From Candidatus Freyarchaeum deiterrae (GTDB lineage: Archaea > Asgardarchaeota > Jordiarchaeia > Jordiarchaeales > Jordiarchaeaceae), in contig CP147778.1 in NCBI GenBank assembly GCA_037305845.1, positions 1,216,001 through 1,280,000 on the forward strand: 64,000 bases of DNA, written 5' to 3'. The notes under the pieces are model-generated. The model did no database searches, was not told where the DNA came from, and saw only the letters and a list, made by a program, of their open reading frames with translations. How positions within the stretch are numbered: position 1 is the stretch's first letter; each line of letters opens with the position of its first letter. Made by a program: the position numbers and the translations under genes. Below are positions 31,458-50,451 of this stretch, piece after piece.

Positions 31458-31473
31458 GAGGTGGTAACCTCAG

Positions 31474-33426: not shown

Positions 33427-33427
33427 G

Positions 33428-33503: not shown

Positions 33504-33545
33504 AAAAACAATTATTTAAAAAAAGTGTATGTTGGAGGAAAACAG

Positions 33546-33974
33546 TTGACCTATCAAGTTGTGATGTATGCGTGTTGGAAATGAGGTTATGGAGCAGCCG
33601 ATCTGACAGGTGTTTCCAGACTATCGTACGATACCGCTATTAGAATTGTCCGTTTAAGGTGCACCGGACGACTTGACAGCTCACTACTGCTTGAGCCAAT
33701 TTGCAATGGCGCAGATGGTGTAATGGTAGTCGGATGCCATATCGGCGAGTGTGACTTTGAAAAAGGAAACATTATGGCAGAAAAACACGTCAAATTTGTT
33801 AAAAGAATACTTGAGAGACGCGGACTCGGCGGAGATAGAGTAAACATATACTATTGTTCAGCAGCTGAAGTCGGCCGATTCAAAGAATCCATTGATGACA
33901 TGATGAAGAAACTTGAGAAGCTTGGACCCAACCCCATACGCGAGCAAAAAATAATTACGGTTACCCCTGAATGA
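33546..33974 (+). CDS. mvhD: MvhD/VhuD [2Fe-2S] subunit, selenoprotein (TGA 33582-33584)
   Basis: GGAGG RBS and TTG 33546; MTYQVVMYACWK-U-GYGAADLTG...RCTGRLD...GADGVMVVGCHIGEC..EKGN...SAAE..F. Confidence 0.92.
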
Positions 33975-34039
33975 TTCCGAATCAGTAAATCTCGAAAGGT
34001 TCGGAGGACAATCCTCGTAAGCGGAGGATTAGGTAACTG
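33958..34039 (+). promoter_or_regulatory. Eukaryote-like SECIS element for mvhD, overlapping its stop codon
   Basis: AUGA 33971-74, 9-bp helix UUCCGAAUC/GGUUCGGAG, apical AAA, GA 34007-08, enclosing helix CGGUUACC/GGUAACUG, extra hairpin AAUCCUC/GAGGAUU. Confidence 0.8.
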
Positions 34040-34071
34040 TACTGCAAGTTATTTGAACGGAGGATAAACAA

Positions 34072-35520
34072 TTGGTAAAAAATTTGAAGGACGAACTGGA
34101 TGCAACATTAGAAGCCGTAAACAGTTTCAGGGTACGCGCATGGTTAGAAGGAGAAAAAGAAATTCTTGAGTGCGGCAAATTAACACATGAGGAATGGGAA
34201 AAACTCCTAGATTATTTTGTAGACGATGAAACAGAGCGAAGAAAAGTTTTGATAACTCTAAAAAAGTTAGGGAATGCGACTTTACCCCAACTAGAACAAG
34301 AATTAGGAATACCTAATTTTAATATTAGAAAGCACCTCCGACTTTTGGAATACGAAAAGTTAGTTGAAAGAAGTGATGAAAGTAAGGGTGATTCTGAAAC
34401 AGTCTATAAACCCGCTTTAAAGTCGGAACTGTCAAAAACCCCTTATGAAAAAATCAAGTTTATTGTGGATGAAAAGCTCTGCGCAGACTGTGGAGCTTGC
34501 GTAAGCTTTTGTCCGGTTAATGCAATAACAATTGTGGATGAAGCCCCCGTAATTGATGAGAACAAATGTATTGGATGTGGAATTTGCAACTATGTAGCCT
34601 GCCCCAGAACTTTCCTTTTTCTGGACCTTATGAGAGATTATATAAAGGGGGCGTCCTGCAATCTGGAGCAGGAACCTATAGCATCTTATAAAAACGCGTT
34701 CTCAGCCCAAACTAAAAGGGAAGAAATAAGAAAGGTTTGCCAAGATGGAGGCATAGTCACATCTCTCCTAACCTACCTTTTTGATCATAAATTGATAGAT
34801 GGTGTTTTAGCAGTTAAAAAGACGGGAGAAAACTGGGTATCGGAACCCGTCGTCATAACAAACAAAGAGGAACTGCTTCAAACAGCAGGTACAAAGTACG
34901 AGGTTACCCCCACGCTTGTTGGACTTGAAAAAGCCAAAAAAATGGGGCTTAAAAAAATTGCTGTAGCGGGAACCCCCTGCCAAATTCAAGCGGTTAGAAA
35001 GTCCCAAGTCTTTTCAGACAGGTTACAAGAACTCATGGGTGACATCGCATTTATAATAGGAATATTCTGTATGGAAAACTTTGCGTATCAGACTATGAAG
35101 AAAATTTCTGAGGAGTACTGCAAGGTTAGCCTAGAAAACGCCCGTAAGATGGACATAAACAAGGGGCAATTCTCAGTACATTCCAAAACAGGCGAAAAGA
35201 CATCGGTACCAGTTAAAGAGGTAACAAGCCTAGCGAGAGAAGCTTGCCACATATGCCCAGACCTTACAAACGAGCTCGCAGACATATCAGTGGGCTCCAT
35301 TGGATCGCCACCCGGCTGGTCAACTGTCCTCATTAGAACAGAAAGAGGAAAGGAAGTTTTTCAAAAGGCTCAGGATGAGGGATACCTGACCTCAAAGCCA
35401 TTGGAGGAAGCGGAAACAGGATTACCCATGGTGATAAAACTAGCAAAAGGGAAAAGAAAAAGAAACCTGGAAAAACTAGAATCTAAAAGAGCAGAGGGAA
35501 AATATGCCACCTGCTTTTAA
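34072..35520 (+). CDS. FrhB/FdhB-family F420-binding oxidoreductase with N-terminal wHTH and ferredoxin domains
   Basis: CADCGACVSFCP, CIGCGICNYVACP, QDGGIVTSLL, AGTKY, GTPCQ, GIFCMENF, CHICPD..NELADISVGSIG. Confidence 0.9.
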   Translation: MVKNLKDELDATLEAVNSFRVRAWLEGEKEILECGKLTHEEWEKLLDYFVDDETERRKVLITLKKLGNATLPQLEQELGIPNFNIRKHLRLLEYEKLVERSDESKGDSETVYKPALKSELSKTPYEKIKFIVDEKLCADCGACVSFCPVNAITIVDEAPVIDENKCIGCGICNYVACPRTFLFLDLMRDYIKGASCNLEQEPIASYKNAFSAQTKREEIRKVCQDGGIVTSLLTYLFDHKLIDGVLAVKKTGENWVSEPVVITNKEELLQTAGTKYEVTPTLVGLEKAKKMGLKKIAVAGTPCQIQAVRKSQVFSDRLQELMGDIAFIIGIFCMENFAYQTMKKISEEYCKVSLENARKMDINKGQFSVHSKTGEKTSVPVKEVTSLAREACHICPDLTNELADISVGSIGSPPGWSTVLIRTERGKEVFQKAQDEGYLTSKPLEEAETGLPMVIKLAKGKRKRNLEKLESKRAEGKYATCF

Positions 35521-35567
35521 TTCTATCTTTCAATAATAAGATATGCCTCGGAGGGCACTCTCGTCGT

Positions 35568-36839
35568 TTATTTTAGTTCTACTTCAAATTCGCAGTATTC
35601 GTCTCCCTTTGCTATGCACTTTGTTTCTCTGCACTTCCACTCCTTCTTTGTGGCTACCTGAAGAGTTCCGGCAAGAGCCCCCTCAATAAAAGTGCATACC
35701 GGATAATCCGAGTGACCGTATGATAAAGCGATCGTAGAAATAAAGGTTAATTTTAGTTTGCCCTCGTCAATACTTCCTTCCATTGAAAACGGTCTACCCC
35801 ATCCTGTGACCGTGATATATTTTATAACTTCTTCTAAGAGTTTTTTGTTGTTTATCTGGCGTTCAGATTCAATAAAACTGGATACGCTTATTCCCACACG
35901 TAAACCCGAATCGAAAATTATTCGTCGATACTCTTCATAGATGAGTAAACTTTTCATGGTTTCAAGAGGTAATGTGAAAACCTGTATTGGAGCGATGACA
36001 TGATTCCAACCGAACAACGAAACTTGTCCTAATTCGTTAAACGACATACCTTCTTTCAACTCATCAAAAGAGTCGTACAATGGGAATAGTGTGATGAAGT
36101 TGTCATGGGTGAATAAATACGCAAGTCTCTGATTCAGAATTTTATGAGCTTCACTCACTAAAGGAGTTCTTGAAACATGTACGTATGATTGCTTTTTATC
36201 ACCGATTGTTTCAAATCCAAGGTTTATTGCATAATCAACAAGGTGATTTAATGTGTTAATTACCTGTGGTTCATGAACATCACGATTTGCTATTCCTAAA
36301 AGTATACCGCCTTCTCTTTTAGTATCCATGGTTAGTTTTCGAATCATCTTTAAAACAGTTTTCGAATCGAAGTCAATAATTGAAGAACTTATATTTGCAT
36401 AAATAACAAGTATTGTTAGGTCTGGAAACAGCTGTTTGATTTGGTTTTTTGCGCCGTTTATTTCATAAATAATGCTATTTAGGTCATTCGCTATCCCTCT
36501 AATATTTTTAATACTACTATAGGTAGCGTTGGTTTTATTTTCGCCTGAAACCAAATCCAAGTAATAGAACCTGCCATCGTTTATAGAATTTTGAAATGCT
36601 GCATTCTTCTCATCGGAATAATTCTTCTTAAACTGCCTCTGAACTATATTGAAGGGCAAATTTGTATTAATAGTTATAACCGCCCCACCCTTCTCCACAA
36701 AATTCAAAGCAAGTAAGCCCGCAAGCCTATTTGCATCGTTTAGTGAAAAGGAATCAGAAGCCAACAAAATTGACAAACCATCATACAGGCGCCCTAAAGT
36801 TTTATCAATGTAATCAATTCCCGTTTTACGAATCTTCAA
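35568..36839 (-). CDS. Inactive KaiC/RecA-like domain fused to V4R domain (paralog 4 in transcription order)
   Basis: KTGIDYIDKTLG start, LNHLVDYAINL; V4R GWG...PVC...ETKCIAKGDEYCEF. Confidence 0.8.
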   Translation of the reverse strand: MKIRKTGIDYIDKTLGRLYDGLSILLASDSFSLNDANRLAGLLALNFVEKGGAVITINTNLPFNIVQRQFKKNYSDEKNAAFQNSINDGRFYYLDLVSGENKTNATYSSIKNIRGIANDLNSIIYEINGAKNQIKQLFPDLTILVIYANISSSIIDFDSKTVLKMIRKLTMDTKREGGILLGIANRDVHEPQVINTLNHLVDYAINLGFETIGDKKQSYVHVSRTPLVSEAHKILNQRLAYLFTHDNFITLFPLYDSFDELKEGMSFNELGQVSLFGWNHVIAPIQVFTLPLETMKSLLIYEEYRRIIFDSGLRVGISVSSFIESERQINNKKLLEEVIKYITVTGWGRPFSMEGSIDEGKLKLTFISTIALSYGHSDYPVCTFIEGALAGTLQVATKKEWKCRETKCIAKGDEYCEFEVELK

Positions 36840-36937
36840 AACTAATCCCTCTCTCAATCCATTAAAAAACAAGTAATATAAATATTATCTTTTTTCCATT
36901 GGTAGATAAATAGATAGAACACCAAATTCGCGAATAC

Positions 36938-38209
36938 TTATTTTTCAACTTCTGCTTCAAATTCACATAACTCATCACCAGTCGCTATACAGTTTGTTTC
37001 TCTGCAAAACCACTTGTTTCCTGTAACGCCTTCTAAAATACCTGCCATAATGCTCTCAAATATCAGACTAACTTTATGATCAGATTTTCCGTAGTAAAGT
37101 GCAAATGTTTCAAAATAAGATATTTTGAGTCTACCAGACTCTAGACTTCCCTCCTTTTTGATTAGTCTTCCCCACCCTCGAATTAGTATATGGTTTATTG
37201 CTGCGTCTAGCAATTCATTTCCCTCTAGGCCATATTCTGATCTAAATAATTTTGTAATTTCCAGACCCACCGCTTTACCGAAATTTTTTATGAATTCTCC
37301 GCATTCATTTATTTCCAAATTTTTCTCAAGCTCTTTATACAATAATAAGAAAGTGTTTAGAGGTATAATCAAATATTCTATATTATGGATTGAAAGTGCT
37401 CCGCTCTCCCGATAAGAAATACTTCTTTTCAACTCATCAAAAACTGGAGCCAGAGAGGGAATTGTTGAGAAATTATTTTCAGAAATGGTATAAGCATATC
37501 TTTGTTGTAAATTTGTTATATTTGACTCTAAAATTGGGGATTTCAACACTTGAATATATGGTTGTTTTACTCCTCCATTTTCTACCGAACTGAGTTCTAC
37601 TACAAAGTCCGCAAAGTGCATTAATGTGTTTATTACGCGGTAATCATGCAAGTCGCGATTAACGAAGCCAGTGATAAGATATCCTTTTTGCTTTGCATTT
37701 GTTGTCAGCTTTCTAAACATTTTTAAAACGGGTCCTGGGCCAAAATCAATGATGGAGGAACTAAAATTCTGGTACGAAACCAAAACGGGGGTTTCTGGAA
37801 AACTTTTTTTGATCTGATCCCTTAAAAAAAGAATTTCGTACATGATTTTATTCTGATCGTTATTTATTCTGATTATACCTTTAAGATTATTCAAATCCTC
37901 CTTGGAAGCTTCCTCCGAAGCGATATCTACATAGTAAAACCTACCTTCATCCAAACTTTTTTCTAAAAAAGGAAGTTCTTCCGCCGCAAACCTACTTTTA
38001 GTATCATCAAAAAGCATGGAAAATGGTAGGCTTGTACTTACAAAGATACAACCTGCTCCTTGTTTAATGTGGTTTAGATTAATTAAATCGCAGAGAGTTA
38101 TCGTATCGTTGAGAGTCAAAGAATCGCATATGAACAATATTGAAGTACATTCATCTAGATTGCCCAGAGCCTCGTCTATAAAATTTATTAAAGTTTTTTC
38201 TATCTTCAA
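36938..38209 (-). CDS. Inactive KaiC/RecA-like domain fused to V4R domain (paralog 3)
   Basis: LMHFADFVVEL, PYIQVLKSP; V4R GWG...ETNCIATGDELCEF. Confidence 0.8.
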   Translation of the reverse strand: MKIEKTLINFIDEALGNLDECTSILFICDSLTLNDTITLCDLINLNHIKQGAGCIFVSTSLPFSMLFDDTKSRFAAEELPFLEKSLDEGRFYYVDIASEEASKEDLNNLKGIIRINNDQNKIMYEILFLRDQIKKSFPETPVLVSYQNFSSSIIDFGPGPVLKMFRKLTTNAKQKGYLITGFVNRDLHDYRVINTLMHFADFVVELSSVENGGVKQPYIQVLKSPILESNITNLQQRYAYTISENNFSTIPSLAPVFDELKRSISYRESGALSIHNIEYLIIPLNTFLLLYKELEKNLEINECGEFIKNFGKAVGLEITKLFRSEYGLEGNELLDAAINHILIRGWGRLIKKEGSLESGRLKISYFETFALYYGKSDHKVSLIFESIMAGILEGVTGNKWFCRETNCIATGDELCEFEAEVEK

Positions 38210-38244
38210 ACATATACCTCATTAAGTTTCAATTCATGAATAGT

Positions 38245-39531
38245 TCACTGATTTTCAATAAGCTTCAATTCAAATTTGCATTTTTTGTTTCCCATGGCGA
38301 TACATTCCTTTTCCGTACAACTCCAACTGAGTGAAGTAATTTCTTTCAAGATTCCTTGAAGAATTCCTCCTTCCAACACGCAAACAGGATAATCGGATTC
38401 TCCATAATTAGCCGCAAATATAGAAAAGGCTTCTAAAGTTATCCTTTTGGATTTAATATTTCCCTCCAAAATGTTGAACTTACCCCAACCGGTAATTGAG
38501 AGGTGATTTAATGCAGCTTTAAAAAGTTCTTCGGCGTTTAGATCAAATTGGGGGGATAATGCTTTTATGATAAGTGTTCCTATCGAACCACCTACCCTTC
38601 CAATTATTTTAGTGTATTCGCTTTTTCCAAGTTTTTTTTCAGACTCTTTTAAGAGATGTAGTAAACTCCATATTTCGATAATAACATAATTTGTACCGTA
38701 AGCGGTGACCTCTCCTCTTTCAAGATAGGAAATATTTTCCTTTAACTCTTCGAAGGTTGTAGGAAGAGAGGGGATTGTATAAAAGTTATCTTCCGAAATT
38801 TCATAAGCGATTTTTTTGTAAAGGCTTTTTTCGGTGTCCTTCAACAGGGGAGTTCTATTTACTGACACGTAGGGTTGCTTTTTACCGCCGAGTATATCTA
38901 TTCCAAATTCAAGTATATAATCGGTAAAGTGAGTGATGGAATTGGTTACATTCTGCTCTTGCATTTCTCGATTCAAGATACCAAGAAATAAATCACTCCC
39001 TTGCTTAACATTCAAAATCAGTTTTCTTATCATGTTTAATACGACTTGAGGCTCAAAATCCACAATCAGGGAACTGATATTTGTGTGTAAAATTAGAACG
39101 GGGGCGTCTGAAAAGATTTTTTTGATTTGATTCTTTGCATTTAAAATTTCATACACTATTCGAGGAGGATCATTTACAACTTCCGTTATAAACTCTGAAT
39201 AATTGAACTTCTGGGTACTAACGGTTTCCTCTACAACAATATTAAGAAAATGCAATCTCCCTTCATTCATAGCCTTCTGAAGAATAAGCCTTTTCGCGGG
39301 CGATTGAAAATATAATGTTTCATTTACCGCCAAAGAGAAGGGAAGATTTTCATAAATAAGAACGCACCCCCCACCCTTTTCCAAAATGTTCAACGCTATT
39401 AAACTTCCAAGCTTCTGAGCATCATCTGCCGTAGCTGAGTCCGTGGAAAACATTATGGGTAAACCATCATAAAGAACACCGAGGGTTTGATCCACAAATT
39501 CTATTCCAATGTTTTGAATTTTCAATTCCAC
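38245..39531 (-). CDS. Inactive KaiC/RecA-like domain fused to V4R domain (paralog 2)
   Basis: GIEFVDQTLG, ITHFTDYILEF; V4R GWG...PVC...EKECIAMGNKKCKF. Confidence 0.8.
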   Translation of the reverse strand: MELKIQNIGIEFVDQTLGVLYDGLPIMFSTDSATADDAQKLGSLIALNILEKGGGCVLIYENLPFSLAVNETLYFQSPAKRLILQKAMNEGRLHFLNIVVEETVSTQKFNYSEFITEVVNDPPRIVYEILNAKNQIKKIFSDAPVLILHTNISSLIVDFEPQVVLNMIRKLILNVKQGSDLFLGILNREMQEQNVTNSITHFTDYILEFGIDILGGKKQPYVSVNRTPLLKDTEKSLYKKIAYEISEDNFYTIPSLPTTFEELKENISYLERGEVTAYGTNYVIIEIWSLLHLLKESEKKLGKSEYTKIIGRVGGSIGTLIIKALSPQFDLNAEELFKAALNHLSITGWGKFNILEGNIKSKRITLEAFSIFAANYGESDYPVCVLEGGILQGILKEITSLSWSCTEKECIAMGNKKCKFELKLIENQ

Positions 39532-39591
39532 ATCTCCTCAGAATAGGCAATAAAAGATAATCTGAAGTTGTTAAAAAAAATTAATGTTTGT

Positions 39592-40863
39592 TCAGGATTC
39601 TATCTGAGCCAATTCAAACTCGCAGTAATCATCGCCCATAGCTATGCACTTTGTTTCCTTACAAACCCATTTTTTCCCCGTGATTTCTTCAACAAGTCCC
39701 AGCAGGCTGCCCTCTATCAATACATCCACGGGCTTGTTTGATTTATCCCATTTTTCAGCTAGTGACGAATGGACCCGAATTTTTATTTTACCAGATTCAA
39801 GAGTTCCCTCAATACTTAATAGCCTACCATAGCCTCTAGCACCGCCGTACTTAATAGTTAACAGCAGTAAGCGATCATCTTTTATTTTGAATTCAGATTC
39901 AACCGCTCTAACGTTTTTGACCACAAATTCTCTACCTAGTTCTAAAATCGTTTTTCTATATAGTTCGTAATCAATATTTTTTTCCATGGCTTTTAGAAGT
40001 TCCGTTGTAAATTGGACTGGAAGTACAAGGTTTTGGGTTCCTAGTATTGAAACCTCTCCTTTTTGATAAAAAACCTGCCCATCTTCTAATTCATCTAGGT
40101 AGAAAGATATGGGTGAAAAGGTTTCAAACTTGTTCCCAGAAATGTAATATGTAAGTTTTTTAAACAGAATTCTTTTAGAAAATCCCACTATTGGTGTTTT
40201 AGTGACTTGAAAATAAGGACGCGGTGAATCGCCCTTTAATTCTAATCCAAACTCACCAGTATAGCTCGAAAATTGTTTCAGGATATTTGTTATTTCCGAT
40301 TCATGAACATCTCTGTTTACCAGCCCGATAAAGATGTCACTGTCCTGTTTTATTTTCGCAATCAGTTTTCGTAACATCTTTAAAACAGCTTTTGAATCAA
40401 AATCAATTATGGAAGAGCTTATATTATGATACAAGACAATAATTTTAGAATCAGGAAACTTCTCCTTAGTTCTATCCATTGCTTGGCTAGCTTCGTACAA
40501 TATCATATCCAAATCGTTTTTAACCAGTTTAACGCCACTAACTTCAGTTTTACCGGATTGCCCTTTATTAGATGTTAAATCTAGATAAGTGAAACGCCCT
40601 TCATTCATTGCTTTTACTAAAGCAGGAAATTTCTCAGGCAGAAAAAGTTGTTTAAATTTTTGACGACCTAAAAAATAGGGTTCATCTGTTTGAACTGCCA
40701 CGCAGGACATCCCCTGATCTATCAAATTAAGGGTAACTGACAGACTAAGCATCATCGCGTCGTTTAGCGTAGAAGAGTCTGCAGTAAAAAGCAGCACCTG
40801 CCCTCCGGAAATTTTACCCAAAGAAAAGTCTATAACGGGTATCTTAGTATCAATTACCTCCAA
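39592..40863 (-). CDS. Inactive KaiC/RecA-like domain fused to V4R domain (paralog 1)
   Basis: TKIPVIDFSLG, NRDVHE; V4R GYG...ETKCIAMGDDYCEF. Confidence 0.8.
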   Translation of the reverse strand: MEVIDTKIPVIDFSLGKISGGQVLLFTADSSTLNDAMMLSLSVTLNLIDQGMSCVAVQTDEPYFLGRQKFKQLFLPEKFPALVKAMNEGRFTYLDLTSNKGQSGKTEVSGVKLVKNDLDMILYEASQAMDRTKEKFPDSKIIVLYHNISSSIIDFDSKAVLKMLRKLIAKIKQDSDIFIGLVNRDVHESEITNILKQFSSYTGEFGLELKGDSPRPYFQVTKTPIVGFSKRILFKKLTYYISGNKFETFSPISFYLDELEDGQVFYQKGEVSILGTQNLVLPVQFTTELLKAMEKNIDYELYRKTILELGREFVVKNVRAVESEFKIKDDRLLLLTIKYGGARGYGRLLSIEGTLESGKIKIRVHSSLAEKWDKSNKPVDVLIEGSLLGLVEEITGKKWVCKETKCIAMGDDYCEFELAQIES

Positions 40864-41068
40864 AATGCCACCATCTCAGACATTTTAATTATATATATTA
40901 TGTGAAATTATATATGTACTATTATCATTTTCATTATAAAAAATTTGAGTATAGCGCATAATAATTTGAGGAGATGTATTATTATGAGTTGATAGAGTGA
41001 TTTTTAAAATATCTTATTAAAAATAAAGCACGGAGAGGTAAAGATAAAACTATTTGGGAATTGTTGAC

Positions 41069-42241
41069 TTAGCTAGATTTTTTATAAGCAGTTTGACTCA
41101 TCTTGATTCTCTTATTTATGGTATTTCCTTCGTTATCTTCGAAGACCAATTGGAAACTTTGAACATTTTTTTCACGTAATTCATAGTTTAATTCTACTTC
41201 TTTTCCTTCAGGCACCTTTTTGATTCCCAGCATGAAAGGAGCGGTTTCGAATAGTTCCTCTTTTATTCCCACTACTTTTATGGTGACTCCTTTGAGTTCT
41301 TGTTTTGCGTTATTAGTCACAGACATACTTAAGTTGTCTTTATCTTTTTGTTCTACTGAAACCTCTAATGATTGTGGTAATATCTTCCCTTTCAAGATAC
41401 CCTGAGCTTTTGATTCCTCAAACAATCCTTCTTCTTTGACTGGCGGTAATATTATGTTTATGGGTATCTGGAATTTAATACTTTCACCAGTAATCTTTGT
41501 ACATGTGATGTCAAGGTACCAGTAGGAGTAAGCTCCGAATGTTTGGGACCATTGAGTTCTTTCGGTGGGCTCCCACAAATAGTTGTAGCTATGCTCGGCG
41601 TACTGCGGTACCCTAATAGATAGATAGCCCTGTGTGGGGTTCTTTTCCTCAACGGTAGTTAAAGTCTCCGGAGGGTTCTTTTTAATATGAACACAAACGT
41701 TTGCGTATTTTGGGCAAGAACAATTAATGTTCGAGTCGTTAACCAGATCTACTGTTAATAGCTTTAGTCCCTCGGTTTTATAATTCAGTTTAATTACCTC
41801 ACCGGGTAGAACTGCATCCTTTTCGATGCTGAAGCCCATACCCTTTATAGTGATAGAAACAGGATTAGGTTCAAATTTTTGTTCCGATCTTATCTTTATT
41901 GGTTCTTCTGTGACAATTTTGAATGCTTCACCGTGTTTATCTGGGTGTCCCACTGATAGAGTTGCTCTGATAAGGTAGTGCACATTTTTTCGAATAAGTG
42001 TGGGGACAGCTCTTCTGCTTATGGTGAGTTCACGTTCTCGAAGGTAAGTTCCGTTTTCAAAAAGGCCTTCACAGAATATTTCACTTGTGGATAAGGGAAG
42101 TTCATTTCCACAAGGTAGGTTAGTGAGGAGTGTCACCCCACCCCACCAAACCTTTGTATCCTCTGCGAAGTCAAACTTTGCTATGGTCCTTATGTTGGAA
42201 CCAGCCGCTGCAGACTCTTTTGCGCGCACCTCTATTGACAT
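41069..42241 (-). CDS. Arrestin/Vps26-like beta-sandwich protein with extra C-terminal domain
   Basis: GTY...LTI....PT....VHYLIRATL (arrestin-N-like); IEKDAVLPGEVIKL...YWYLDI...FQIPINI (arrestin-C-like). Confidence 0.65.
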   Translation of the reverse strand: MSIEVRAKESAAAGSNIRTIAKFDFAEDTKVWWGGVTLLTNLPCGNELPLSTSEIFCEGLFENGTYLRERELTISRRAVPTLIRKNVHYLIRATLSVGHPDKHGEAFKIVTEEPIKIRSEQKFEPNPVSITIKGMGFSIEKDAVLPGEVIKLNYKTEGLKLLTVDLVNDSNINCSCPKYANVCVHIKKNPPETLTTVEEKNPTQGYLSIRVPQYAEHSYNYLWEPTERTQWSQTFGAYSYWYLDITCTKITGESIKFQIPINIILPPVKEEGLFEESKAQGILKGKILPQSLEVSVEQKDKDNLSMSVTNNAKQELKGVTIKVVGIKEELFETAPFMLGIKKVPEGKEVELNYELREKNVQSFQLVFEDNEGNTINKRIKMSQTAYKKSS

Positions 42242-42277
42242 TAATAACTACCCTAAAGATTGAATTATTAATATTTT

Positions 42278-43195
42278 TTATCCACCCTCGGAGTGGGCTC
42301 TAACTACAAGGTCAGCAAACATAGACATGTCAGATAGCAGTGAGTCGATTTTCTCCTGCGCGCTCTTGTCCAGCTCTTGAGTTTTCATTATTAGTACAGC
42401 TATTATGAATTTGAATACGTGTAAGGAAATCTCTTTATCTCCTTCTAATCCGTGCCCAGAAAATTCAGCGGATTCGGACATGAAGAAGTTTTCCCTAAGA
42501 TTATTACACGCGCTTATGAAATCTCTCAAGTCACCTCTCAGCTGCAATCCTGTGCTAATTCCCTGAACGTTGTGTACAATCACGTTACCCGAAGTATCGC
42601 TGATGATAATTCTGGCAGGAATTTCACTCAACTGTTTCTGAGCAGTCTCAACATGCTTTTCCAGAGACTTGTAACTAGATACCATTATGTCACGAAAGAT
42701 TTCGGCGAGCCTTTCCTGCTCATAAATGGAGGTAACATGATAAACAGGATTCCATTCGGCGAACAAATCTAGGAATACGCCCTTAGCCATTTCGAGATTG
42801 GTATCAAGAAGTTCTTTCTCGTAGTCTTGTATGTCATACTTGTGGAAGAAAATATGTACTGCTGGTTTAATCTTATTCTTCTTAAAGAGGTTCATTATAT
42901 CGGTAAAGTATTTCTTTGCCTCATCGAAACTCTCAGGCTCATGAAGATCTATAATGGGAATTAGAATATCAGTTCCTGAAAATACCTTTGGATCATTCAT
43001 GTAAGATTCTCGGTACTGTTCCTGACCTCCGAAATCAAATATCGAAACTTCCAAACCTAGGAAGGGGTGTCTTCTTATCTCATACATTATAGTCGGCGCT
43101 GCACCTTTGGTTTGTTCTGGTTTTCTGCCAGCAAATGTAGCCATGTATATGCTTGTTTTCCCACATCCTGATAAACCAACTAATGAGATTTTCAA
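42278..43195 (-). CDS. Rag/Gtr-like small GTPase with C-terminal roadblock-like domain
   Basis: G1 GLSGCGKTS, G2 PTI, G3 DFGGQ, Rag-type G4 HKYD and G5 TSIY; C-terminal IIISDTSGNVIV; TTG start downstream of GGAGGT. Confidence 0.85.
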   Translation of the reverse strand: MKISLVGLSGCGKTSIYMATFAGRKPEQTKGAAPTIMYEIRRHPFLGLEVSIFDFGGQEQYRESYMNDPKVFSGTDILIPIIDLHEPESFDEAKKYFTDIMNLFKKNKIKPAVHIFFHKYDIQDYEKELLDTNLEMAKGVFLDLFAEWNPVYHVTSIYEQERLAEIFRDIMVSSYKSLEKHVETAQKQLSEIPARIIISDTSGNVIVHNVQGISTGLQLRGDLRDFISACNNLRENFFMSESAEFSGHGLEGDKEISLHVFKFIIAVLIMKTQELDKSAQEKIDSLLSDMSMFADLVVRAHSEGG

Positions 43196-43240
43196 TGCTT
43201 CTACCTCCGCACACATTAGATTCAAATTCATATTTAACGT

Positions 43241-44743
43241 TTATTCTTCCGATTTTTTACCTTCAATTTCTTTTACACTAAGCTTTTGCGACAGAATAGT
43301 TCCCTGCCTGTCAGAAATAACTAACAGGTATTCCTTATCATCCTTAGCCCTTGGATAAGTAAATTCGAGCTCTTCAAACGGATACCATGTTTCAATATCC
43401 GTTTCCCAAGCGTTGGTCTCAAATAAATCTTCCAAGTGAGTAATCCTCACTTTCACATTACTTATCGTCTTTCCCGAATTATTCGCTAAAGTTAATTGAA
43501 GCATAGTATTGCCATCGACAAACTGAGCCTCTGAAACCTTTAGCAGCTTTTTAAGAGCACGCTCAACTACATTTTCCTTTTCTGGAGGCGTATCCTCAGC
43601 TAAAGGTATAGCTCCCTTTCGTTCCACAGGTTCTGGAACCCCTGCTGTTGTTTGAACATACTTCAGAACATAGGTGTGACGCCGTTTCTCAGTATACATT
43701 TGTACCTTTTTTAACCTCGCAAGGTTCAGAACCTTTTGAAGACCTTCCCTGTCTAAAGGCTTTAGAGTCAAGTAGCCGTTTTCCACAGCGTCCTCCAGAA
43801 GCTCATTAGCCACGCCTGTCCGAACTAGTATCGTTGAGTACCCCTCAGAAGAGCCCACGCTACCAACTGATATATCCGCCATTTCTGAAGTAAGATCTCG
43901 ACAGTAGTGACAACTCGTCGAACGAAACTTATCAAGCTCCTTAACAGGCCAACCACTAGTCTTATCAGAATCATAAAATATGTTAAACTTCCCAGAAGCG
44001 ATACTCATCTTATGAATAGAACTCAGAGGAATCCCCTGTTCTCCCTCAAAAAAGTCCTTAATCCCCTCATAAGTGAAGGAGTCCATACAAAACAGCCCAA
44101 CTTTAAGAATCTTAGACTTCATGAACAATTGAAGCAAGCCAAAGGGTTGGGACTGCATCTTAGCAACAGCATCAATATTACAAGGAGTACCGACAAATGC
44201 TATGGAACGATATCCCTTGTTTATCGCATCTACCATGGCTTCAACCGTCTGACTGTGAGAATAAACACTACCCGAAGACTTTAGAAGCTCCTCAGAACTG
44301 GTAACAATCCTCGCAACAGGCTTCCAAGGCTCCTCCTCACTCTTCATAGTAACAATCGCCGCATCTATTAAACCTTTATCCAGAGCGTACGACAAAAGAG
44401 AAGTAACAACACCACCATCTTGACCCTTCACCTTATCCAAAGCAGACTTGCCAACAAAAGCCGCAACATAGTCACCAACCAAAGACTTAATCGAAGTAAT
44501 CGTACGAGGGCAGTGTCTGTAGCATATGCCACAAGCCGTGCATTTTCCGACTAGCTTTGGCGTCTCATCCTCCATTACGAGGGCATGTTCCGGGCAAATG
44601 CTGATGCAGGTTCCGCAGCATGTGCAAACGCCGCTTCTTATTACTTCTTGGCTTAAGCGTCCGAAGTTTTCGAGTTTTTTTACTTTTAAAAGCCTTTCAG
44701 GAAATGTGTAGCTTATGTACCCTTTTTCCTCCTCATTTATCAT
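43241..44743 (-). CDS. FrhB-family F420-binding oxidoreductase with ferredoxin domain and C-terminal non-enzymatic domain
   Basis: CTCCGTCISICP, CTACGICYRHCP, QDGGVVTSLL, GTPCN, GLFCMDSF, CHYCRD..SEMADISVGSVG; ~100-aa extra C-terminal domain. Confidence 0.88.
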   Translation of the reverse strand: MINEEEKGYISYTFPERLLKVKKLENFGRLSQEVIRSGVCTCCGTCISICPEHALVMEDETPKLVGKCTACGICYRHCPRTITSIKSLVGDYVAAFVGKSALDKVKGQDGGVVTSLLSYALDKGLIDAAIVTMKSEEEPWKPVARIVTSSEELLKSSGSVYSHSQTVEAMVDAINKGYRSIAFVGTPCNIDAVAKMQSQPFGLLQLFMKSKILKVGLFCMDSFTYEGIKDFFEGEQGIPLSSIHKMSIASGKFNIFYDSDKTSGWPVKELDKFRSTSCHYCRDLTSEMADISVGSVGSSEGYSTILVRTGVANELLEDAVENGYLTLKPLDREGLQKVLNLARLKKVQMYTEKRRHTYVLKYVQTTAGVPEPVERKGAIPLAEDTPPEKENVVERALKKLLKVSEAQFVDGNTMLQLTLANNSGKTISNVKVRITHLEDLFETNAWETDIETWYPFEELEFTYPRAKDDKEYLLVISDRQGTILSQKLSVKEIEGKKSEE

Positions 44744-45057
44744 ATTTTTCTCTCTCCTTTCACTAGTTTTCTCCGCTTTTTTCAAACGTAAATCCAGTCT
44801 TGCGATAACAATCTGTTGAGATTTGAGTATAGTTTTAATTCATTCCCACTATAGTTTGAATTGTATTATCGTCCAGTATATAAATTTTTTAGAAGACCCT
44901 TAGATTTACGTCGAAGAAGTTTGTAAATTTCAATATTACACATTTTTTCGTACTTAATACCTTTTCGATTGCCCAAAAAGGCTTAAAAAATGGTTTGTTT
45001 AGGGCGGAATTCGTCTATTTTTAGAACAAATTCATGTTTTAGAATGGAATTAGAAGG

Positions 45058-47079
45058 CTACTGTTCTTTAGATGGCCAAATAAAAACAGCCACAACCGCG
45101 CAGATGAGGAAAGGAGTTAATAAAAGCATAGTTCCCAGAGAAAAGAGGGAATTCTCCGTAGGAATCATTGTTATAGCCAAGATTATGGGAGTTACGGCTG
45201 GTGTTTGAACGCTTACGCTTTGGGCGTCTGAGAAGGTTTGATAGCCCTGTGAATCTGTTGCGCTGGCATAGAATACCATACTATTATTATTGAAGTAGGA
45301 GGAATCAATAACGAAGCTATAAGAGCCGTTAAGCAGGGGTATCGAATCAACGATTACTTTGTGATAATCGGTTACGACGAGTTCTAAGCTAATTACCCCT
45401 TGAGGATTACTGCAACATACATTGATGGTGAATTGATCTCCGGGGTTAATTTTACTGGGAGCATTTATGATGAAAGTTGTAGGTTGGTCTGTTGTCGTGC
45501 CCACGGTCAGAACAGTTGTGTTATACAGAAAATTGGGCTTTGTCACTATAATGCTATAATTCCCAGTCTGGGGTGCAGGGATTCTTATATTACCATTCGA
45601 GTCGGTAAGGTATGTGTGGTAATAACCCGTTCCCTGAATGCTAACCAAAGCTCCATTTACTGGGCTTCCCCCGTTACTCTGAATACTGATTTGCATTAAC
45701 TTTCCGGGGATTGGTGTAGATTCGGATATAATGCTCATATTTTGGGGGGTGCTGGTCCAGATTGGAAGTTCTGGGTCTCCCAGGAGATTGTAATCTAGGA
45801 ACTCTTGTCGGTACTCATAGTTTTGAGCCAGATTTGTTAAACCAACATCCTGATAGTATTGATACTTGCTCTGGTACAATGTATATCCTGGACGCTGGGA
45901 AAATAAGCCGTCGTTAGTTTTGAGAAGTGTTCCAAAGAATAACGCGTCTAAAAGAGAATCCGACAGGTCATTAATGTTATCCCCGCCAAAGCTTGTTCTC
46001 GCGGCCCCAATGTACGATACCGCTCCACCATTTGGATTTTTTAGCATGGCGCTTCCTATACTGTTCCCTGCATCCAGCTGTGCAGTTTCACAAGCTGAAG
46101 CAAAAACCATAGGCAATTCATAACCATTACTTGAACTCGCAGCATCCGTAGATGTATAGTAACTAGTGCCATATTCATCCCTTGAAACTGCTGTGGCTGA
46201 ACCGTGGGAGCAGAAGTTAACTATCGCGCTCCCATCATTTATTGCAGTAATAAAGTTGGCCTCAGTTAAATTATTATAATAATAAGGTGGATTATTGTCC
46301 CAAAATAGACTAGTAAAGGTCATGTTTAGTTCGGGAGGGATGACATAGTCACGGATATAACTTTCGATTCTCCACCCCTGGATATCACTACTTATTTCTC
46401 CTCCCGCAAAAACTGCTGTTTGCATCCAGTTCCCTGTGATATTTCCTAGGTCCTCTTCGTAGGTGAGCGTCTTGTTTATCATGGTTCCAAGTTCATTCGT
46501 GTTTGAGGCGGGCAGTCTTCCAACATATAGTTCCGGAATCCAATCCATACTACCGAACGCCCCATAGTTCCCGTCTCCATTATTGTCAAAGGTTCCATTC
46601 AAAGCCGCATAGTAATAATCGCTGGGAATAAGACCGTCTGGCGATCCGATATTGAAATATCTTGTTGGGATTAAAGTTGTATCTCCTGCTAATAGAACCC
46701 ATTGAATATTCCAATGGTTATATGCGTCTATCAGAAAGTTACGTATTTTTTCGGGTAGGTCTCTTCCAGTGTAGTTGTTGTTGATATAGGTTGTGTTAAA
46801 TATGGCGGTAGGTATGCCTTTCTGGGTTTTCCATTCCGCGAACTGTAAGAGATTAGTGTTGTTATCCCAGCCCGGCGGAGTTATTATTACGTATTGTGTG
46901 GTGTTTGTTTTCAGAATGATTGGCGTGGGAATGTTTTGTATTTGCTTATTTTGTTGATTTTGTGAAGTAGCCAGCGGAACCCAAGAATTAGGAGTAGGAA
47001 GGAATAGCAGGGGAACTGCTATAGTTATCAGAACTAATATGAAAGCTAGTTTTACGTAGGAAAATTTCAAGCCAATCAC
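45058..47079 (-). CDS. Membrane-anchored gingipain-like cysteine peptidase (family C25)
   Basis: Signal/TM N-terminus, WVLLAGD, SDYYYA, VGRLP, catalytic SHG and SAC, NLLGDPELP, Ig-like tail, C-terminal TM. Confidence 0.88.
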   Translation of the reverse strand: MIGLKFSYVKLAFILVLITIAVPLLFLPTPNSWVPLATSQNQQNKQIQNIPTPIILKTNTTQYVIITPPGWDNNTNLLQFAEWKTQKGIPTAIFNTTYINNNYTGRDLPEKIRNFLIDAYNHWNIQWVLLAGDTTLIPTRYFNIGSPDGLIPSDYYYAALNGTFDNNGDGNYGAFGSMDWIPELYVGRLPASNTNELGTMINKTLTYEEDLGNITGNWMQTAVFAGGEISSDIQGWRIESYIRDYVIPPELNMTFTSLFWDNNPPYYYNNLTEANFITAINDGSAIVNFCSHGSATAVSRDEYGTSYYTSTDAASSSNGYELPMVFASACETAQLDAGNSIGSAMLKNPNGGAVSYIGAARTSFGGDNINDLSDSLLDALFFGTLLKTNDGLFSQRPGYTLYQSKYQYYQDVGLTNLAQNYEYRQEFLDYNLLGDPELPIWTSTPQNMSIISESTPIPGKLMQISIQSNGGSPVNGALVSIQGTGYYHTYLTDSNGNIRIPAPQTGNYSIIVTKPNFLYNTTVLTVGTTTDQPTTFIINAPSKINPGDQFTINVCCSNPQGVISLELVVTDYHKVIVDSIPLLNGSYSFVIDSSYFNNNSMVFYASATDSQGYQTFSDAQSVSVQTPAVTPIILAITMIPTENSLFSLGTMLLLTPFLICAVVAVFIWPSKEQ

Positions 47080-47207
47080 TCTTGTTTTTATAAAAAAAAC
47101 AACGCATCAGGGGTAATTTAATTTTGTGTTGTAAGCATTTGATGAATTTTCATGAAGTTTTACGAGATTATTATGTTTTTGGTTTTTTGATAATTTTTGG
47201 TGGCTTT

Positions 47208-48257
47208 TTATTTCATTTCTTTTATTGAGATTCTTTTTACTAGTAGTTTTTGGGCTCCTTCTTCGATTTTTAGAATGTATTCGCCGTCATTGTCAACGCG
47301 AGGGTACTGGAAAACTAGTTCTTCGTAGGGGAACCAGATTTCGACCATTGTGTCCCAGGAGTATGTTTCGAAGAATTCTTCGATATGTGCTATGGATATT
47401 TTAATGCTATCTAAGCTTTTTTCGGAGTTGTTTTTGACAGTTATTTTCAGTTTTTTCTTGTTGTCAGCGAATTCAACACCTACCAGTTCTACGGGGCTTT
47501 CAGGAATGTGTTCAACGGCTCTCGTCTCTATTGCGCTTTTTCCGGATAATTCAACAGACCTTGCCTGTGGGCCGGTGACGCCGTACATATTGTTAAGAAG
47601 GAAGTATACTAGATTTTTCTGTTTCTCTACATCACTCTGTAGAGCATCCATTAATTCGGTGGATATTACGGGTATGGAAATGTCACATAGGTTTGAGAGA
47701 GTGTTTTCTACTTCTTCCCCGTCTTTGATATTTTTATGGTCTTCTTCGTTTTTTATGGGTTTGGTGCAGGCTAGGTCTTTCTCTATGAGTAAGTAGAGTT
47801 TGTCCTTCACATTTTCTTTGATTTTTTTGAGCAAAACGCTGAGTAGCATATCTCCTAATGGTTTGGCTACGCCAACTGGTACACTAACTATGAGGACGAA
47901 GACCTCTTCTGTTTCTGGGGACATGCCCGCTCTTTGTTTTTCTCTAGCTGATTTCGCCTTGAACTTTGTGGCGGCGTACACCTTCCCCCCAAATTCTAGG
48001 TCAACTCGATTCAGTCCCTCTTCTTTGAAGTCCTCTGCGCCAAGCCACCACACAGGATGCTTTTGGATTATCCTCAGTGTTTCTGTGTCATTCTTCAGGT
48101 TCTCTGGGCATGTAAACAAAGCGAGGTGCCCTTTGGCCTCATGGAAGTAGCATAGGTAAATTCCTATCAAACCCTCAAAAGTGTTGGTAGGAGGCTCTTC
48201 CCTCTTGCGCTCTAGTTCAAGGTCGTCGATTTCATTACTATTCGGATTTTTAGACAT
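47208..48257 (-). CDS. Longin/uDENN-like protein with C-terminal beta-rich domain
   Basis: GIYLCYFHEAKGHLALFTCP matches the uDENN/NPRL2/FLCN-type first hairpin; C-terminal domain shared with 43241-44743. Confidence 0.65.
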   Translation of the reverse strand: MSKNPNSNEIDDLELERKREEPPTNTFEGLIGIYLCYFHEAKGHLALFTCPENLKNDTETLRIIQKHPVWWLGAEDFKEEGLNRVDLEFGGKVYAATKFKAKSAREKQRAGMSPETEEVFVLIVSVPVGVAKPLGDMLLSVLLKKIKENVKDKLYLLIEKDLACTKPIKNEEDHKNIKDGEEVENTLSNLCDISIPVISTELMDALQSDVEKQKNLVYFLLNNMYGVTGPQARSVELSGKSAIETRAVEHIPESPVELVGVEFADNKKKLKITVKNNSEKSLDSIKISIAHIEEFFETYSWDTMVEIWFPYEELVFQYPRVDNDGEYILKIEEGAQKLLVKRISIKEMK

Positions 48258-48368
48258 TTTAATGCACCAGAGGTAAATAGTGAATTAATGATAGCGGATT
48301 CATTTCTTGTATTATACGCTTCCCCATTTCTTAATTCTCGAGTTATGGAGTTTAGATTGTTTTTTATT

Positions 48369-48836
48369 TTAGGTGTCTGTTTCGGGGGTTTGTTTTTCCG
48401 TTGAATCCTTTGGTTGTAACTCGATTTCGTAATATCTTGTGTATTTCTTAAATTTGTCGACCCATCTTTTACTGATGACTCCTATGATTTTGCCTTCATT
48501 GTCTACCACTCCAACACGCTTCACCTTTGTTTTTTCAAATAGAGTTCTTAACTCCTCAATCGAAGCGTTGGGGCCCACTGTTATAATGTCCTTAACCATT
48601 ACATCTCCTGCTTTATAACGCCTAGGATCTTTTTCTTTAGCCACCAGTCGGAATACAATGCCGTCCGTGATTAAGCCGACAACCCTTTCTTCATCATCTT
48701 TTACGAATACCGAGCTGATCCAGTTATCCACCATCAGCTGCGCCACTTTGGGAAGGGAGTCGGAAACATGGCAGGTTACCACTTCACGGCTCATGGCATT
48801 GACTATTGAAAACTTGTCTTTATCATCAGTCGACAA
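48369..48836 (-). CDS. CBS-pair protein
   Basis: AMSREVVT, VVGLITDG, DVMVKDIITV, GKIIGVIS. Confidence 0.9.
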   Translation of the reverse strand: MSTDDKDKFSIVNAMSREVVTCHVSDSLPKVAQLMVDNWISSVFVKDDEERVVGLITDGIVFRLVAKEKDPRRYKAGDVMVKDIITVGPNASIEELRTLFEKTKVKRVGVVDNEGKIIGVISKRWVDKFKKYTRYYEIELQPKDSTEKQTPETDT

Positions 48837-49071
48837 TCTAAGACCACCAAGACCTTTGTGAATACATGAATACAACTATAAATTTAGCTTTTTATACCTT
48901 TTTAAGGCGACAGCATAAACTACTCTGTGCCTCGCACATGTTTTTGCAAATAGGGGGAATATAAATGTTTATCAATTCGTATTCTTCCTTTAGGTTGAAA
49001 AATTGAGGATAGAGTTAAAATCTGATTAGGTTTGTTAAATTAATTAAAATCCTGTTTTGGAGGGCGAAGTA

Positions 49072-50451
49072 ATGGTATTTAAACACCAGTACATACCAGC
49101 AACCGAAGATGACAAAAAGACAATGTTAGATGAGCTTGGAATCAAAAGTGTGGATGAGTTATACAGGGATATTCCGCATAAAATAAGGTTGAATAAGCGA
49201 CTTGATCTCCCTGAACCACTTGTAGAAGTTGATTTGAAGCGAAGTATTGAAAGTTTAGTGAACAGGAATGTTACTCATAAGGATATTCCTGTTTTTCTGG
49301 GTTCGGGTGTATGGCTCCATTATGTACCAGCGGTTGTGAAGACGCTTACGTTTCTTCCCGAGTTTCAAACTTCTTACACTCCTTATCAGTCGGAGGTGTC
49401 TCAGGGGATTCTTCAGGCACTCTTTGAGTATCAGAGCATGATATGCGAGATAACGGGTATGGACATAGCGAATGCTTCAATGTACGATTGGGCGTCTGCA
49501 CTCGGTGAGGCTGCACTGATGGCGGGAAGAGTGACAAAGAGGGAGGAGTTTCTAGTTCCGAGAATAATCCATCCTGAAAGAAAAGCCGCTCTCGAAACAT
49601 ACACCTATAAAATAATGAATGTTAGAGAGGTTCCCTATGTAAGCGAGACTGGAGTTATCGATATCAACGCCTTGGAAAGCATGGTTTCTAAAAAAACTGC
49701 GGGAATATACATAGAGAACCCCAATTATCTCGGAGTAATAGAGTTTGAAGTTGCCGAAATAGGCAGAATAGCTCGTGAAAACGACACACTGTTCGTTGTG
49801 GGGGTCGATCCAACATCTTTGGGTGTTCTAGCTCCTCCGGGAGAGTATGGAGCGGACATTGTGATAGGCGAGGGACAACCGCTTGGTATTGATCCGTCTT
49901 TTGGGGGGCCCCTAATCGGCTTATTCGCGTGCCGAGAGGACAAGACGTTGATGAGGAATATGCCAGGGAGGCTTATCGGTATGACCGAGGATGCGGAGGG
50001 AAATCGCTGTTATACAATAACGCTGCAAACCAGAGAGCAGCACATCCGTAGGGAAAGAGCTACGAGTAACATTTGCTCCAATGAGGCACTCTGTGCGGTT
50101 CAGGTGGCAATATATCTTGCTTGTGTAGGCCCTTGTGGATTGACTCAGCTGGGGGAAACTTGTATGGCAAATTCGAGATACGTAATGCGAAGGATAAATG
50201 AAATCGATGGATTTAAAGCGCCCCTTTTTGATTCAACTCATTTTAAGGAGTTCACAGTTAGCTCTCAGAAACCCGTTGATGAGGTTCATAAAAAGCTGTT
50301 GGAAATGGGAGTCCACGGGGGTAAAATTATTAAAGGTGAATTTCCGGAGCTCGGTGAAACAAGTCTATACTGCGTAACAGAGATTCACACCGTTGAAGAG
50401 ATGGACAAATTAGTTGAAGCGCTGACAGAAATTTCTCGCAACCCGGGATAG
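49072..50451 (+). CDS. gcvPA: Glycine dehydrogenase subunit 1
   Basis: YTPYQSEVSQG.LQALFEYQ, NASMYD, FGGP, LQTREQHIRRERATSNICSN. Confidence 0.96.
   Translation: MVFKHQYIPATEDDKKTMLDELGIKSVDELYRDIPHKIRLNKRLDLPEPLVEVDLKRSIESLVNRNVTHKDIPVFLGSGVWLHYVPAVVKTLTFLPEFQTSYTPYQSEVSQGILQALFEYQSMICEITGMDIANASMYDWASALGEAALMAGRVTKREEFLVPRIIHPERKAALETYTYKIMNVREVPYVSETGVIDINALESMVSKKTAGIYIENPNYLGVIEFEVAEIGRIARENDTLFVVGVDPTSLGVLAPPGEYGADIVIGEGQPLGIDPSFGGPLIGLFACREDKTLMRNMPGRLIGMTEDAEGNRCYTITLQTREQHIRRERATSNICSNEALCAVQVAIYLACVGPCGLTQLGETCMANSRYVMRRINEIDGFKAPLFDSTHFKEFTVSSQKPVDEVHKKLLEMGVHGGKIIKGEFPELGETSLYCVTEIHTVEEMDKLVEALTEISRNPG

Follow-up and report, generated by a model that had tools for sequence, protein, structure and literature searches.

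An Ig-like C-terminal domain shared by proteins encoded around a Rag-like GTPase in Asgard archaea, and its possible role in docking

Genes of the locus

The window, by which we mean the whole stretch of 64,000 nucleotides analyzed here from the genome of Candidatus Freyarchaeum deiterrae, encodes three different proteins that end in the same domain, hereafter the tail. The carriers are an arrestin-like protein, an iron-sulfur flavoprotein, and a longin protein (Table 1).

Table 1. Genes and features of the locus, with positions in the window.
Feature	Position	Strand	Remarks
Arrestin-like protein with tail, 390 aa	41069..42241	-	two predicted arrestin lobes
Tail copy 1, aa 288-385 of the arrestin-like protein	41087-41380	-	Phe-Glu motif at 41246-41251
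Rag/Gtr1-like GTPase with C-terminal roadblock-sized domain, no tail	42278..43231	-	Pfam Gtr1_RagA; start probably TTG at 43195, as suggested by orthologues
FrhB/FpoF-like iron-sulfur flavoprotein with tail	43241..44785	-	ferredoxin-like N-terminus, FrhB N and C domains; probable start 44743
Tail copy 2, aa 411-508 of the FrhB protein	43262-43555	-	Phe-Glu motif at 43418-43423
C25 peptidase, no tail	45058..47079	-	between tail carriers
Longin protein with tail, 349 aa	47208..48257	-	predicted structure, pLDDT 84
Tail copy 3, aa 252-349 of the longin protein	47211-47504	-	Phe-Glu motif at 47367-47372; copy used for folding
SxRxKxRxG loop between longin strands 4 and 5	47925-47951		conserved; candidate Arg finger
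Tandem-CBS protein	48369..48875	-	Pfam CBS

The names that the original prediction gave to the carriers stand, for the arrestin-like protein at the level of the family only. The FrhB N and C domains reach 81 and 149 bits against Pfam cut-offs of 22 and 23.3, and the protein stays below the curated equivalog cut-offs of TIGR03289 (207 against 331.5) and NF040616 (145 against 475). Arrestin_C matches 11 of 28 orthologues of the arrestin-like protein (best E 3.4e-5) and not the window's own protein, whose atlas neighbours are arrestin/Vps26 proteins at 0.84-0.88, values that we treat as leads only (<0.9). Four cysteines (44, 174, 176, and 183) are invariant in the alignment of this protein and possibly form a metal site.

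The longin protein consists of a longin fold (aa 29-206), a helical hairpin, a disordered linker (aa 226-251), and the tail, and this C-terminal part contains no DENN domain. Its longin domain aligns at Z 9.8 over 140-146 residues with NPRL2 (8fw5_B) and with the FLCN complex (6nzd_H), scores that are tied with those of other longins, Sec22 matching at Z 10.0. Sequence searches of the PDB with the longin and arrestin profiles gave no significant match. Of 60 longins, 45 have R105 and 42 have R109 in the loop that may provide an Arg finger; the arginines are absent mostly from second paralogues. At the site of the GP motif, Gly is found in 59 of the 60, the next residue is His in 40, and Pro is outside the four commonest residues.

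The GTPase scores 65.9 bits with Gtr1_RagA (cut-off 22), and among named chains its profile is closest to RagA/Gtr1 (E about 1e-21). It has the motifs DFGGQ, HKxD, and TSIY, with H118, K119, and D121 invariant. Profile alignments extend into its conserved C-terminal domain of 130 aa (with Gtr2, to position 234), and residues 197-245 contain 18 invariant columns out of 51, three of them Arg. There is as a rule one orthologue per genome; four distant Rag-like genes lie elsewhere in the source genome. The original prediction did not count the GTPase among the partners.

The tandem-CBS protein, presumably an adenine-nucleotide sensor as its family suggests, is probably an accessory member of the module. 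Its gene adjoins that of the longin in Jordarchaeia and in most loci of Helarchaeales and Hodarchaeales, whereas no such adjacency was seen among the Lokiarchaeial loci covered, and a longin-tail-CBS fusion is known from one protein (P0032). The C25 peptidase was rejected as a member, since 8 of 80 loci have it, each of them next to the closest relatives of the window, and four V4R genes were ruled out by the same tally. Rfam had no match in positions 31000-49100. The RNA runs gave five short contigs on the stretch, which have no bearing on expression or co-transcription.

The three tails are homologous

One C-terminal domain had been proposed on three different proteins, and the comparison of the tails bears this out: in every pair the score exceeded all of 2000 shuffles. 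The FrhB and longin tails score 223 (shuffle maximum 55) in an ungapped local alignment of 88 residues, and their identity of 37% agrees with the earlier hand count of about 36 of 95. The arrestin tail is 27% identical to the FrhB tail (score 97, shuffle maximum 58) and 22% to the longin tail; the latter is the weakest pair, with a score of 66 that none of the 2000 shuffles reached (maximum 62). The KRI that had been taken as terminal in the arrestin tail is followed by 11 more residues. A profile search of the 3.58 Mb genome found exactly these three copies, and the three other FrhB paralogues of the genome lack the domain. A tree of 58 tails supports one group of arrestin tails and another of NfnB tails (see below), the remaining branches lacking resolution.

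Fold and sequence relationships of the tail

The longin tail was predicted with high confidence (pLDDT 94.6) as a seven-stranded Ig-like sandwich of two sheets, in line with the beta-sandwich proposed originally. Ig-like domains align with it along its full length (Z up to 10.5, rmsd 2.2-2.6 over 89-95 residues). The BBS1 GAE/adaptin ear, RhoGDI/PDEdelta/UNC119, the arrestin lobe/Spo0M, and GH2 Ig domains all have this seven-stranded sandwich (Z 8.5-10.5). However, the tail is only 3-19% identical to such appendages, none of which stands out, and it is set apart from them by a long hairpin that bears a distinct Phe-Glu tip. As the original prediction held, it belongs to no named family: Pfam families match at most 4 of 150 tails each (best E 2e-4), database names of tail proteins cover only their FrhB or glutamate-synthase parts, and no ESM Atlas feature of the tail reaches 0.85. 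The tail thus has a common fold but is a private sequence family.

These likenesses bear on the idea that the tails bind an outside party (a membrane protein, a lipid, or a scaffold) and co-localize their carriers in the manner of adaptin-ear or GDI-type appendages. Its fold neighbours would fit: BBS1 GAE at Z 8.8, Spo0M at Z 8.5, RhoGDI/UNC119 as the top Foldseek rows (E 7.5e-4, TM about 0.5, rmsd about 4), and a weak profile match (E 0.003, 46 columns) to residues 216-263 of beta-arrestin. Yet none of these stands above unrelated Ig domains, since those of glycosidases score higher (Z about 10), and the GAE_BBS1 profile matches 4 of 150 tails (best E 0.0018) without reaching the family cut-off. 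A specific kinship to the adaptin-ear, TRAPP, or ASH domains for which a Foldseek check had been suggested found no support other than the common fold. Moreover, the genes tallied include no other that accompanies the module constantly, nor any membrane protein. We therefore regard an outside party as quite unlikely. An origin of the tail by duplication of the module's own arrestin lobe found no support (profile probability 1.2% against those lobes).

Distribution of the tail and its partners

Among 1.84 billion representative proteins, the tail has 136 matches, including full-domain matches on 41 longin, 18 arrestin, and 8 FrhB proteins as well as on 36 fragments; of the 2 others, one is a fragment of a longin. 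All classifiable full-domain matches are on longin, arrestin, FrhB, or NfnB carriers, and among 115 further, longer homologues listed, 79 are arrestin and 36 longin proteins, with no other type. Long Ig-repeat proteins score at most 20 bits per domain with the profile, so the tail is not the widespread generic module that would have spoken against a specific role. Five genomes from other families each have one weak match (E 2e-4 to 9e-4); these matches depend on the profile used and were taken as Ig-fold noise.

We then surveyed 301 Asgard genomes, which are kin rather than independent samples, searching separately for the tail, the GTPase C-domain, the longin, and the arrestin. Tail, GTPase C-domain, and longin occur in the same families, one family excepted; the arrestin follows the same families as the tail, except in Hodarchaeales. 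None of the three partners (GTPase, longin, arrestin) was found in the other 22 families. The carriers keep their tails across Jordarchaeia, Lokiarchaeia, Helarchaeales, and Hodarchaeales, even where the genes are scattered, and many Lokiarchaeial genomes have their longin and GTPase genes at a great distance from each other. The FrhB-tail gene lies directly upstream of the GTPase gene in 63 of 65 informative loci.

In five genomes of a Hodarchaeales family, this query finds no FrhB orthologue, and the tail occurs instead on a protein of 577-588 aa in the GTPase locus, which, where tested, is NfnB/GltD-like and unrelated to FrhB. This fourth carrier was absent from the original prediction. Its tails have their best pairwise scores with Jordarchaeia FrhB tails and their best class profile with the first longin, and so point to no single donor.

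These patterns weigh on the simplest account of the tail, a passive appendage for folding, stability, or spacing that spread by local duplication, with no shared interaction. The fold is common, Asn25 and WxPxE look like the structural motif typical of CARDB-type Ig domains, and shuffling is easier between neighbouring genes. Such an appendage would not be expected, however, to persist on all carriers of four lineages, also when the genes are dispersed, or to appear on the enzyme that stands in for FrhB at the GTPase locus and yet be absent from the FrhB paralogues and from the second Nfn-like pair of that Hodarchaeales locus. Together with the loss of the tip motif described below, this makes it very unlikely.

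The hairpin tip and the partners

The tip of the long hairpin carries an acidic-hydrophobic-Phe-Glu motif which, judging from strand lengths rather than coordinates, would protrude and be exposed. Its Phe is present in 44/44 tails of first longins, 71/71 of arrestins, 2/2 of NfnB proteins, and 75/79 of FrhB proteins, as well as in 19/27 of second longins; in second and Hodarchaeales longins, the motif varies, with Glu replaced by Gly or Ser. The four FrhB tails without it all come from one family, in which no GTPase, longin, or arrestin orthologue was found, two single-contig genomes included. The motif is therefore required neither by the fold nor by FrhB itself, and its presence follows that of the partners, although the loss is a single evolutionary event.

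We propose that the tail is a private docking domain that brings its carriers to the Rag-like GTPase of a signalling module, a reading to which we give slightly less than an even chance. The GTPase is the sole constant member without a tail and, encoded between two carriers, is probably the hub of the module. The protruding tip would bind a site on the GTPase, probably on its conserved C-terminal roadblock-type domain, whose conserved patch is, on sequence grounds, a plausible match for an acidic-aromatic tip; the patch may also be the GTPase's own dimer interface. A single motif on every type of carrier is in keeping with a common binding site. The enzyme with flavin and iron-sulfur centres (FrhB-type, replaced in some Hodarchaeales by NfnB-type) would be docked as a redox input or target, the longin protein as a probable GAP, and the arrestin-like protein as an adaptor or effector. 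The evidence is comparative: the tails are homologous and share a fold, their distribution is restricted, they are inherited with the partners in a kept gene order, the enzyme has been swapped, and the motif has been lost once. From this we infer all physical contacts, the binding site, the GAP activity, and the direction of signalling. The swap to NfnB and the motif loss in the partnerless family favour a docking role. The docking tag originally suggested, which would assemble enzyme, regulator, and adaptor, is favoured by these two and by co-inheritance and gene order, but remains conjectural.

The main rival is that the tails bind one another through their hairpin tips, as a pseudo-symmetric hetero-dimer or -trimer, so that enzyme, longin, and arrestin would be united in a single complex meeting the GTPase through the longin domain. 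Most genomes have three tails, and Hodarchaeales, which lost the arrestin, still have this number by virtue of a second longin. The latter usually has no Arg loop and in this recalls the silent member of NPRL2-NPRL3 or FLCN-FNIP. The motif loss is equally compatible with it and cannot separate the two modes of binding, because the single-tail lineage lost both the GTPase and the other tails. On the other hand, Lokiarchaeial genomes have 3 to 5 tails, and the single-tail lineage has lost the motif, although self-binding could have preserved it there in homo-oligomers. Hence, we consider tail-tail binding unlikely. A complex prediction with four chains (the GTPase and the three tails, with the FrhB tail scored) gave 0.00 against a mark of 0.32; it lies outside the calibration of the tool and speaks neither for nor against binding.

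Comparison with known systems

The roles and regulators of Asgard small GTPases are poorly known, largely because genomes seldom reveal which proteins are cognate (PMC10933270). Earlier accounts report Rag-like GTPases in Asgard archaea and, in MK-D1, GTPase genes generally outside operons with regulators, so that cognate pairs are hard to assign (PMC10933270). Asgard longins have been proposed to regulate small GTPases (10.1101/2020.10.19.343400; PMC12290439; PMC10933270), and NPRL2-like longin fusions and an operon of LAMTOR1-like, Rab-like, and DENN genes have been described; unlike the module, this operon combines a non-Rag GTPase with a DENN protein (10.1101/2020.10.19.343400). The available parts of these accounts of longins and GTPases mention neither the tail nor FrhB or the arrestin (10.1101/2020.10.19.343400; PMC12290439; PMC10933270), and we came upon no account of either the domain or the module in the literature, consulted mostly as open-access main texts. 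Here, the restricted domain and the lasting order of the genes give a short list of candidate partners for one Rag-like GTPase, a metabolic redox enzyme included, in lineages that comprise Hodarchaeales. With its 98 residues and a well-folded model, the tail lends itself to binding assays on purified proteins.

The module resembles the eukaryotic Rag/Gtr systems with longin GAPs (GATOR1 NPRL2-NPRL3, FLCN-FNIP, and SMCR8-C9orf72) by its RagA/Gtr1-like GTPase, by the conserved Arg in the strand 4-5 loop of its longin, and, in Hodarchaeales, by tandem longins with and without the Arg loop, which recall the eukaryotic GAP pairs. It differs by a single GTPase gene instead of an A/C pair, and by partners that are a flavin redox enzyme and an arrestin. 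A GP motif before strand 2 marks longin GAPs, and Asgard longins with this motif exist (PMC12290439). In contrast, the longin of the module has G-H at this site and an Ig tail instead of a DENN domain; lacking both GP motif and DENN domain, it is not a member of GATOR1/FLCN. It is tempting, if rather doubtful as a whole, to see here a kinase-free archaeal forerunner of Rag nutrient signalling, in which the portable docking tail would join the lineage's own central electron-transfer enzyme (F420-type or NADPH/ferredoxin-type) to a Rag GTPase under the control of a longin GAP, alongside a CBS energy sensor and an arrestin effector. If so, redox state would directly control the GTPase, or the reverse, and the Hodarchaeales longins would be a catalytic/silent pair.

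The redox enzymes themselves have familiar architectures. The window's flavoprotein shares with the FrhB/FpoF F420 modules the FrhB N and C domains and an N-terminal ferredoxin, and the Hodarchaeales carrier is an NfnB/GltA-type subunit encoded behind an NfnA-type gene, as in the NfnAB transhydrogenase. Both differ from these systems by their C-terminal tail and by being encoded beside a GTPase.

A C-terminal domain common to three unrelated proteins

The original prediction of a common C-terminal domain on three unrelated proteins proved real. A homologous domain of ~98 residues (the tail) stands at the C-terminal end of three minus-strand genes, which encode an FrhB-like, a longin, and an arrestin-like protein. 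An alignment of the FrhB tail with the longin tail spans 88 residues, needs no gap, and scores 223; the maximum in 2000 shuffles was 55. With the same number of shuffles, the arrestin tail scores 97 against that of FrhB (shuffle maximum 58) and 66 against that of the longin (shuffle maximum 62). The respective identities are 37%, 27%, and 22%. A profile search of the 3.58 Mb genome identified exactly three tails, and no Pfam family covers the domain in the window carriers or in the tail homologues searched. The carriers and a neighboring GTPase are called here the module.

Features of the module and its surroundings, in window positions
Feature	Position	Strand	Basis or remark
FrhB/FpoF-like iron-sulfur flavoprotein, with tail	43241-44785	minus	domain profiles
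Longin protein, with tail	47208-48257	minus	model: longin fold (residues 29-206), disordered linker, tail
Arrestin-like protein, with tail	41069-42241	minus	arrestin assignment from family-level evidence
Rag/Gtr1-like GTPase, without tail	42278-43231	minus	profile matches; between FrhB and arrestin-like genes
HdrA	~31450-33426	+	two in-frame TGA codons interrupt the gene in ORF lists
ATGA...AAAA...TGA stretch	~33440-33480		directly after HdrA stop
Second FrhB-like protein, N-terminal helix-turn-helix, no tail	34072-35520	+	after HdrA
Four tandem paralogues (423-434 aa), N-terminal part plus C-terminal V4R domain	35568-40863	minus	Pfam on two

A structure model of the tail, built with 150 homologues (pLDDT 94.6), has seven strands, of which the long strands 31-42 and 45-57 are linked by a two-residue turn. 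This predicted topology and the structural neighbors support the Ig-like beta-sandwich proposed originally. The neighbors are common Ig-like domains only: glycosidase Ig domains (Z ~10), the GAE domain of BBS1 (8.8), and Spo0M (8.5). RhoGDI/UNC119 reached a TM of ~0.5 in the structural search, and the best atlas matches were the module's own Promethearchaeota clusters. Since all neighbors are common Ig-like ones, the fold says little on function. The fold itself is not new, and for the pairing of Rag and longin proteins there is precedent in eukaryotes; in the literature searched, we found no description of the domain family, its four carriers, or the link to a redox enzyme.

Distribution and gene order

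The tail profile matched 136 of 1.84 billion representative proteins. Full-domain matches include 41 longins, 18 arrestins, 8 FrhB, 2 others (one a longin fragment), and 36 fragments too short for carrier classification, while 27 long Ig-repeat proteins match by weak pieces only. Carriers gained in a second search comprised 79 arrestins and 36 longins, with no other type among the matches listed. By source name, carriers belong to Jordarchaeia, Lokiarchaeia, Helarchaeales, and Hodarchaeales; records labelled with other phyla, ~60% identical like the Lokiarchaeial set, were not counted as a wider range. In the 301 genomes examined from the phylum, eight families have the tail; of these, seven have the GTPase C-domain, seven the longin, and six the arrestin. 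None of these three was found in the other 22 families. The gene immediately preceding the GTPase encodes FrhB-tail in 63 of 65 informative loci, and an arrestin-tail gene is within 10 kb of the GTPase in 55 of 80. These locus and family counts come from kin genomes and carry no statistic.

The Hodarchaeales family, in which no arrestin was found (0/21), has two tandem longins, each with a tail. Some of its genomes retain the FrhB-tail gene beside the GTPase. In five others, the FrhB query used found no orthologue; here the third tail belongs to a protein of 577-588 aa, an NfnB/GltA-like flavoenzyme in the genomes where it was typed. This carrier ends a series of GTPase, NuoE-like, NuoF-like, NuoG-like, and NfnA-like genes, and a second Nfn-like pair at the same locus has no tail. 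The tail thus remains linked to the redox enzyme encoded with the GTPase, irrespective of enzyme family. The tail-less pair (L156:6374-9616 and L158:6382-9632 in Hodarchaeales) is divergent from the longin genes and accompanies either tail enzyme.

The hairpin tip

The turn of the long hairpin bears an acidic-hydrophobic-Phe-Glu motif, with Phe in 90% and Glu in 80% of 150 tails. All longin-1 (44/44), arrestin (71/71), and NfnB (2/2) tails have this Phe, as do 75/79 FrhB and 19/27 second-longin tails. The tip would bind the GTPase, probably at its C-domain, where residues 197-245 account for 18 of the 51 invariant columns, three Arg among them. Docking of each carrier on the GTPase, every contact of which we infer, is the preferred if tentative reading. 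Of its rivals, assembly through tail-tail contacts is somewhat unlikely, binding of the tails to a partner outside the module unlikely, and a passive appendage improbable. The four Phe-less FrhB tails, which still match the profile (E ~1e-19), all come from one family with a single tail per genome, where no GTPase, longin, or arrestin orthologue was found (two genomes are single contigs). This loss is one event, yet it is expected if the tip serves a partner within the module. With the docking and tail-tail readings combined, the tail likely joins the module proteins physically.

Carriers and neighboring genes

Structural matches of the longin domain are tied at Z 9-10 (NPRL2, FLCN complex, Sec22, and a longin from Lokiarchaeia). 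The loop between its strands 4 and 5 reads SxRxKxRxG, with R105 in 45 and R109 in 42 of 60 aligned longins, and is a candidate Arg finger site; FLCN, NPRL2, and SMCR8 have their Arg finger in this loop (PMC12290439). Second longin paralogues mostly miss this loop, and the two types recall catalytic/silent longin pairs. The protein may work like a GATOR1/FLCN member; however, it differs from them by a G-H in place of the GP motif and has no DENN domain, and is therefore not classed as one.

In Jordarchaeia, and in most Helarchaeales and Hodarchaeales loci, the longin gene adjoins a CBS gene or is fused to one. A Helarchaeales longin-tail fusion with four CBS domains (locus L150:6251-8182 and protein P0032) is the only example seen with a tail away from the C-terminus. 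In two Lokiarchaeial loci without an adjacent CBS gene, the longin gene is followed by similar genes of ~158 aa (L026:10468-10941, L029:10186-10665). The longin-tail protein P0019 (450 aa) has an unrelated N-terminal extension, lacks the first longin strands, and may be an assembly chimera. In a same-genus genome (L076:634-1731), a TAA divides the longin gene into two ORFs, by sequencing error or as a pseudogene. The arrestin-like family has four invariant Cys (44, 174, 176, and 183), a possible metal or redox-sensing site, and a weak SWIM zinc-finger match.

In 24 of 80 loci, HdrA and the GTPase are no more than 10 kb apart. Its in-frame TGA codons (VYVCE*GIN and DDCAI*ILAPK) are both at probable Cys positions, and the second is kept in three related loci (L022, L023, and L030), so that selenocysteine is probable. 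The stretch that follows may be a eukaryote-type SECIS; Rfam gave no match over 31000-49100, this stretch included. The V4R paralogues, directly downstream of the arrestin gene, were otherwise encountered only among the closest relatives of the window.
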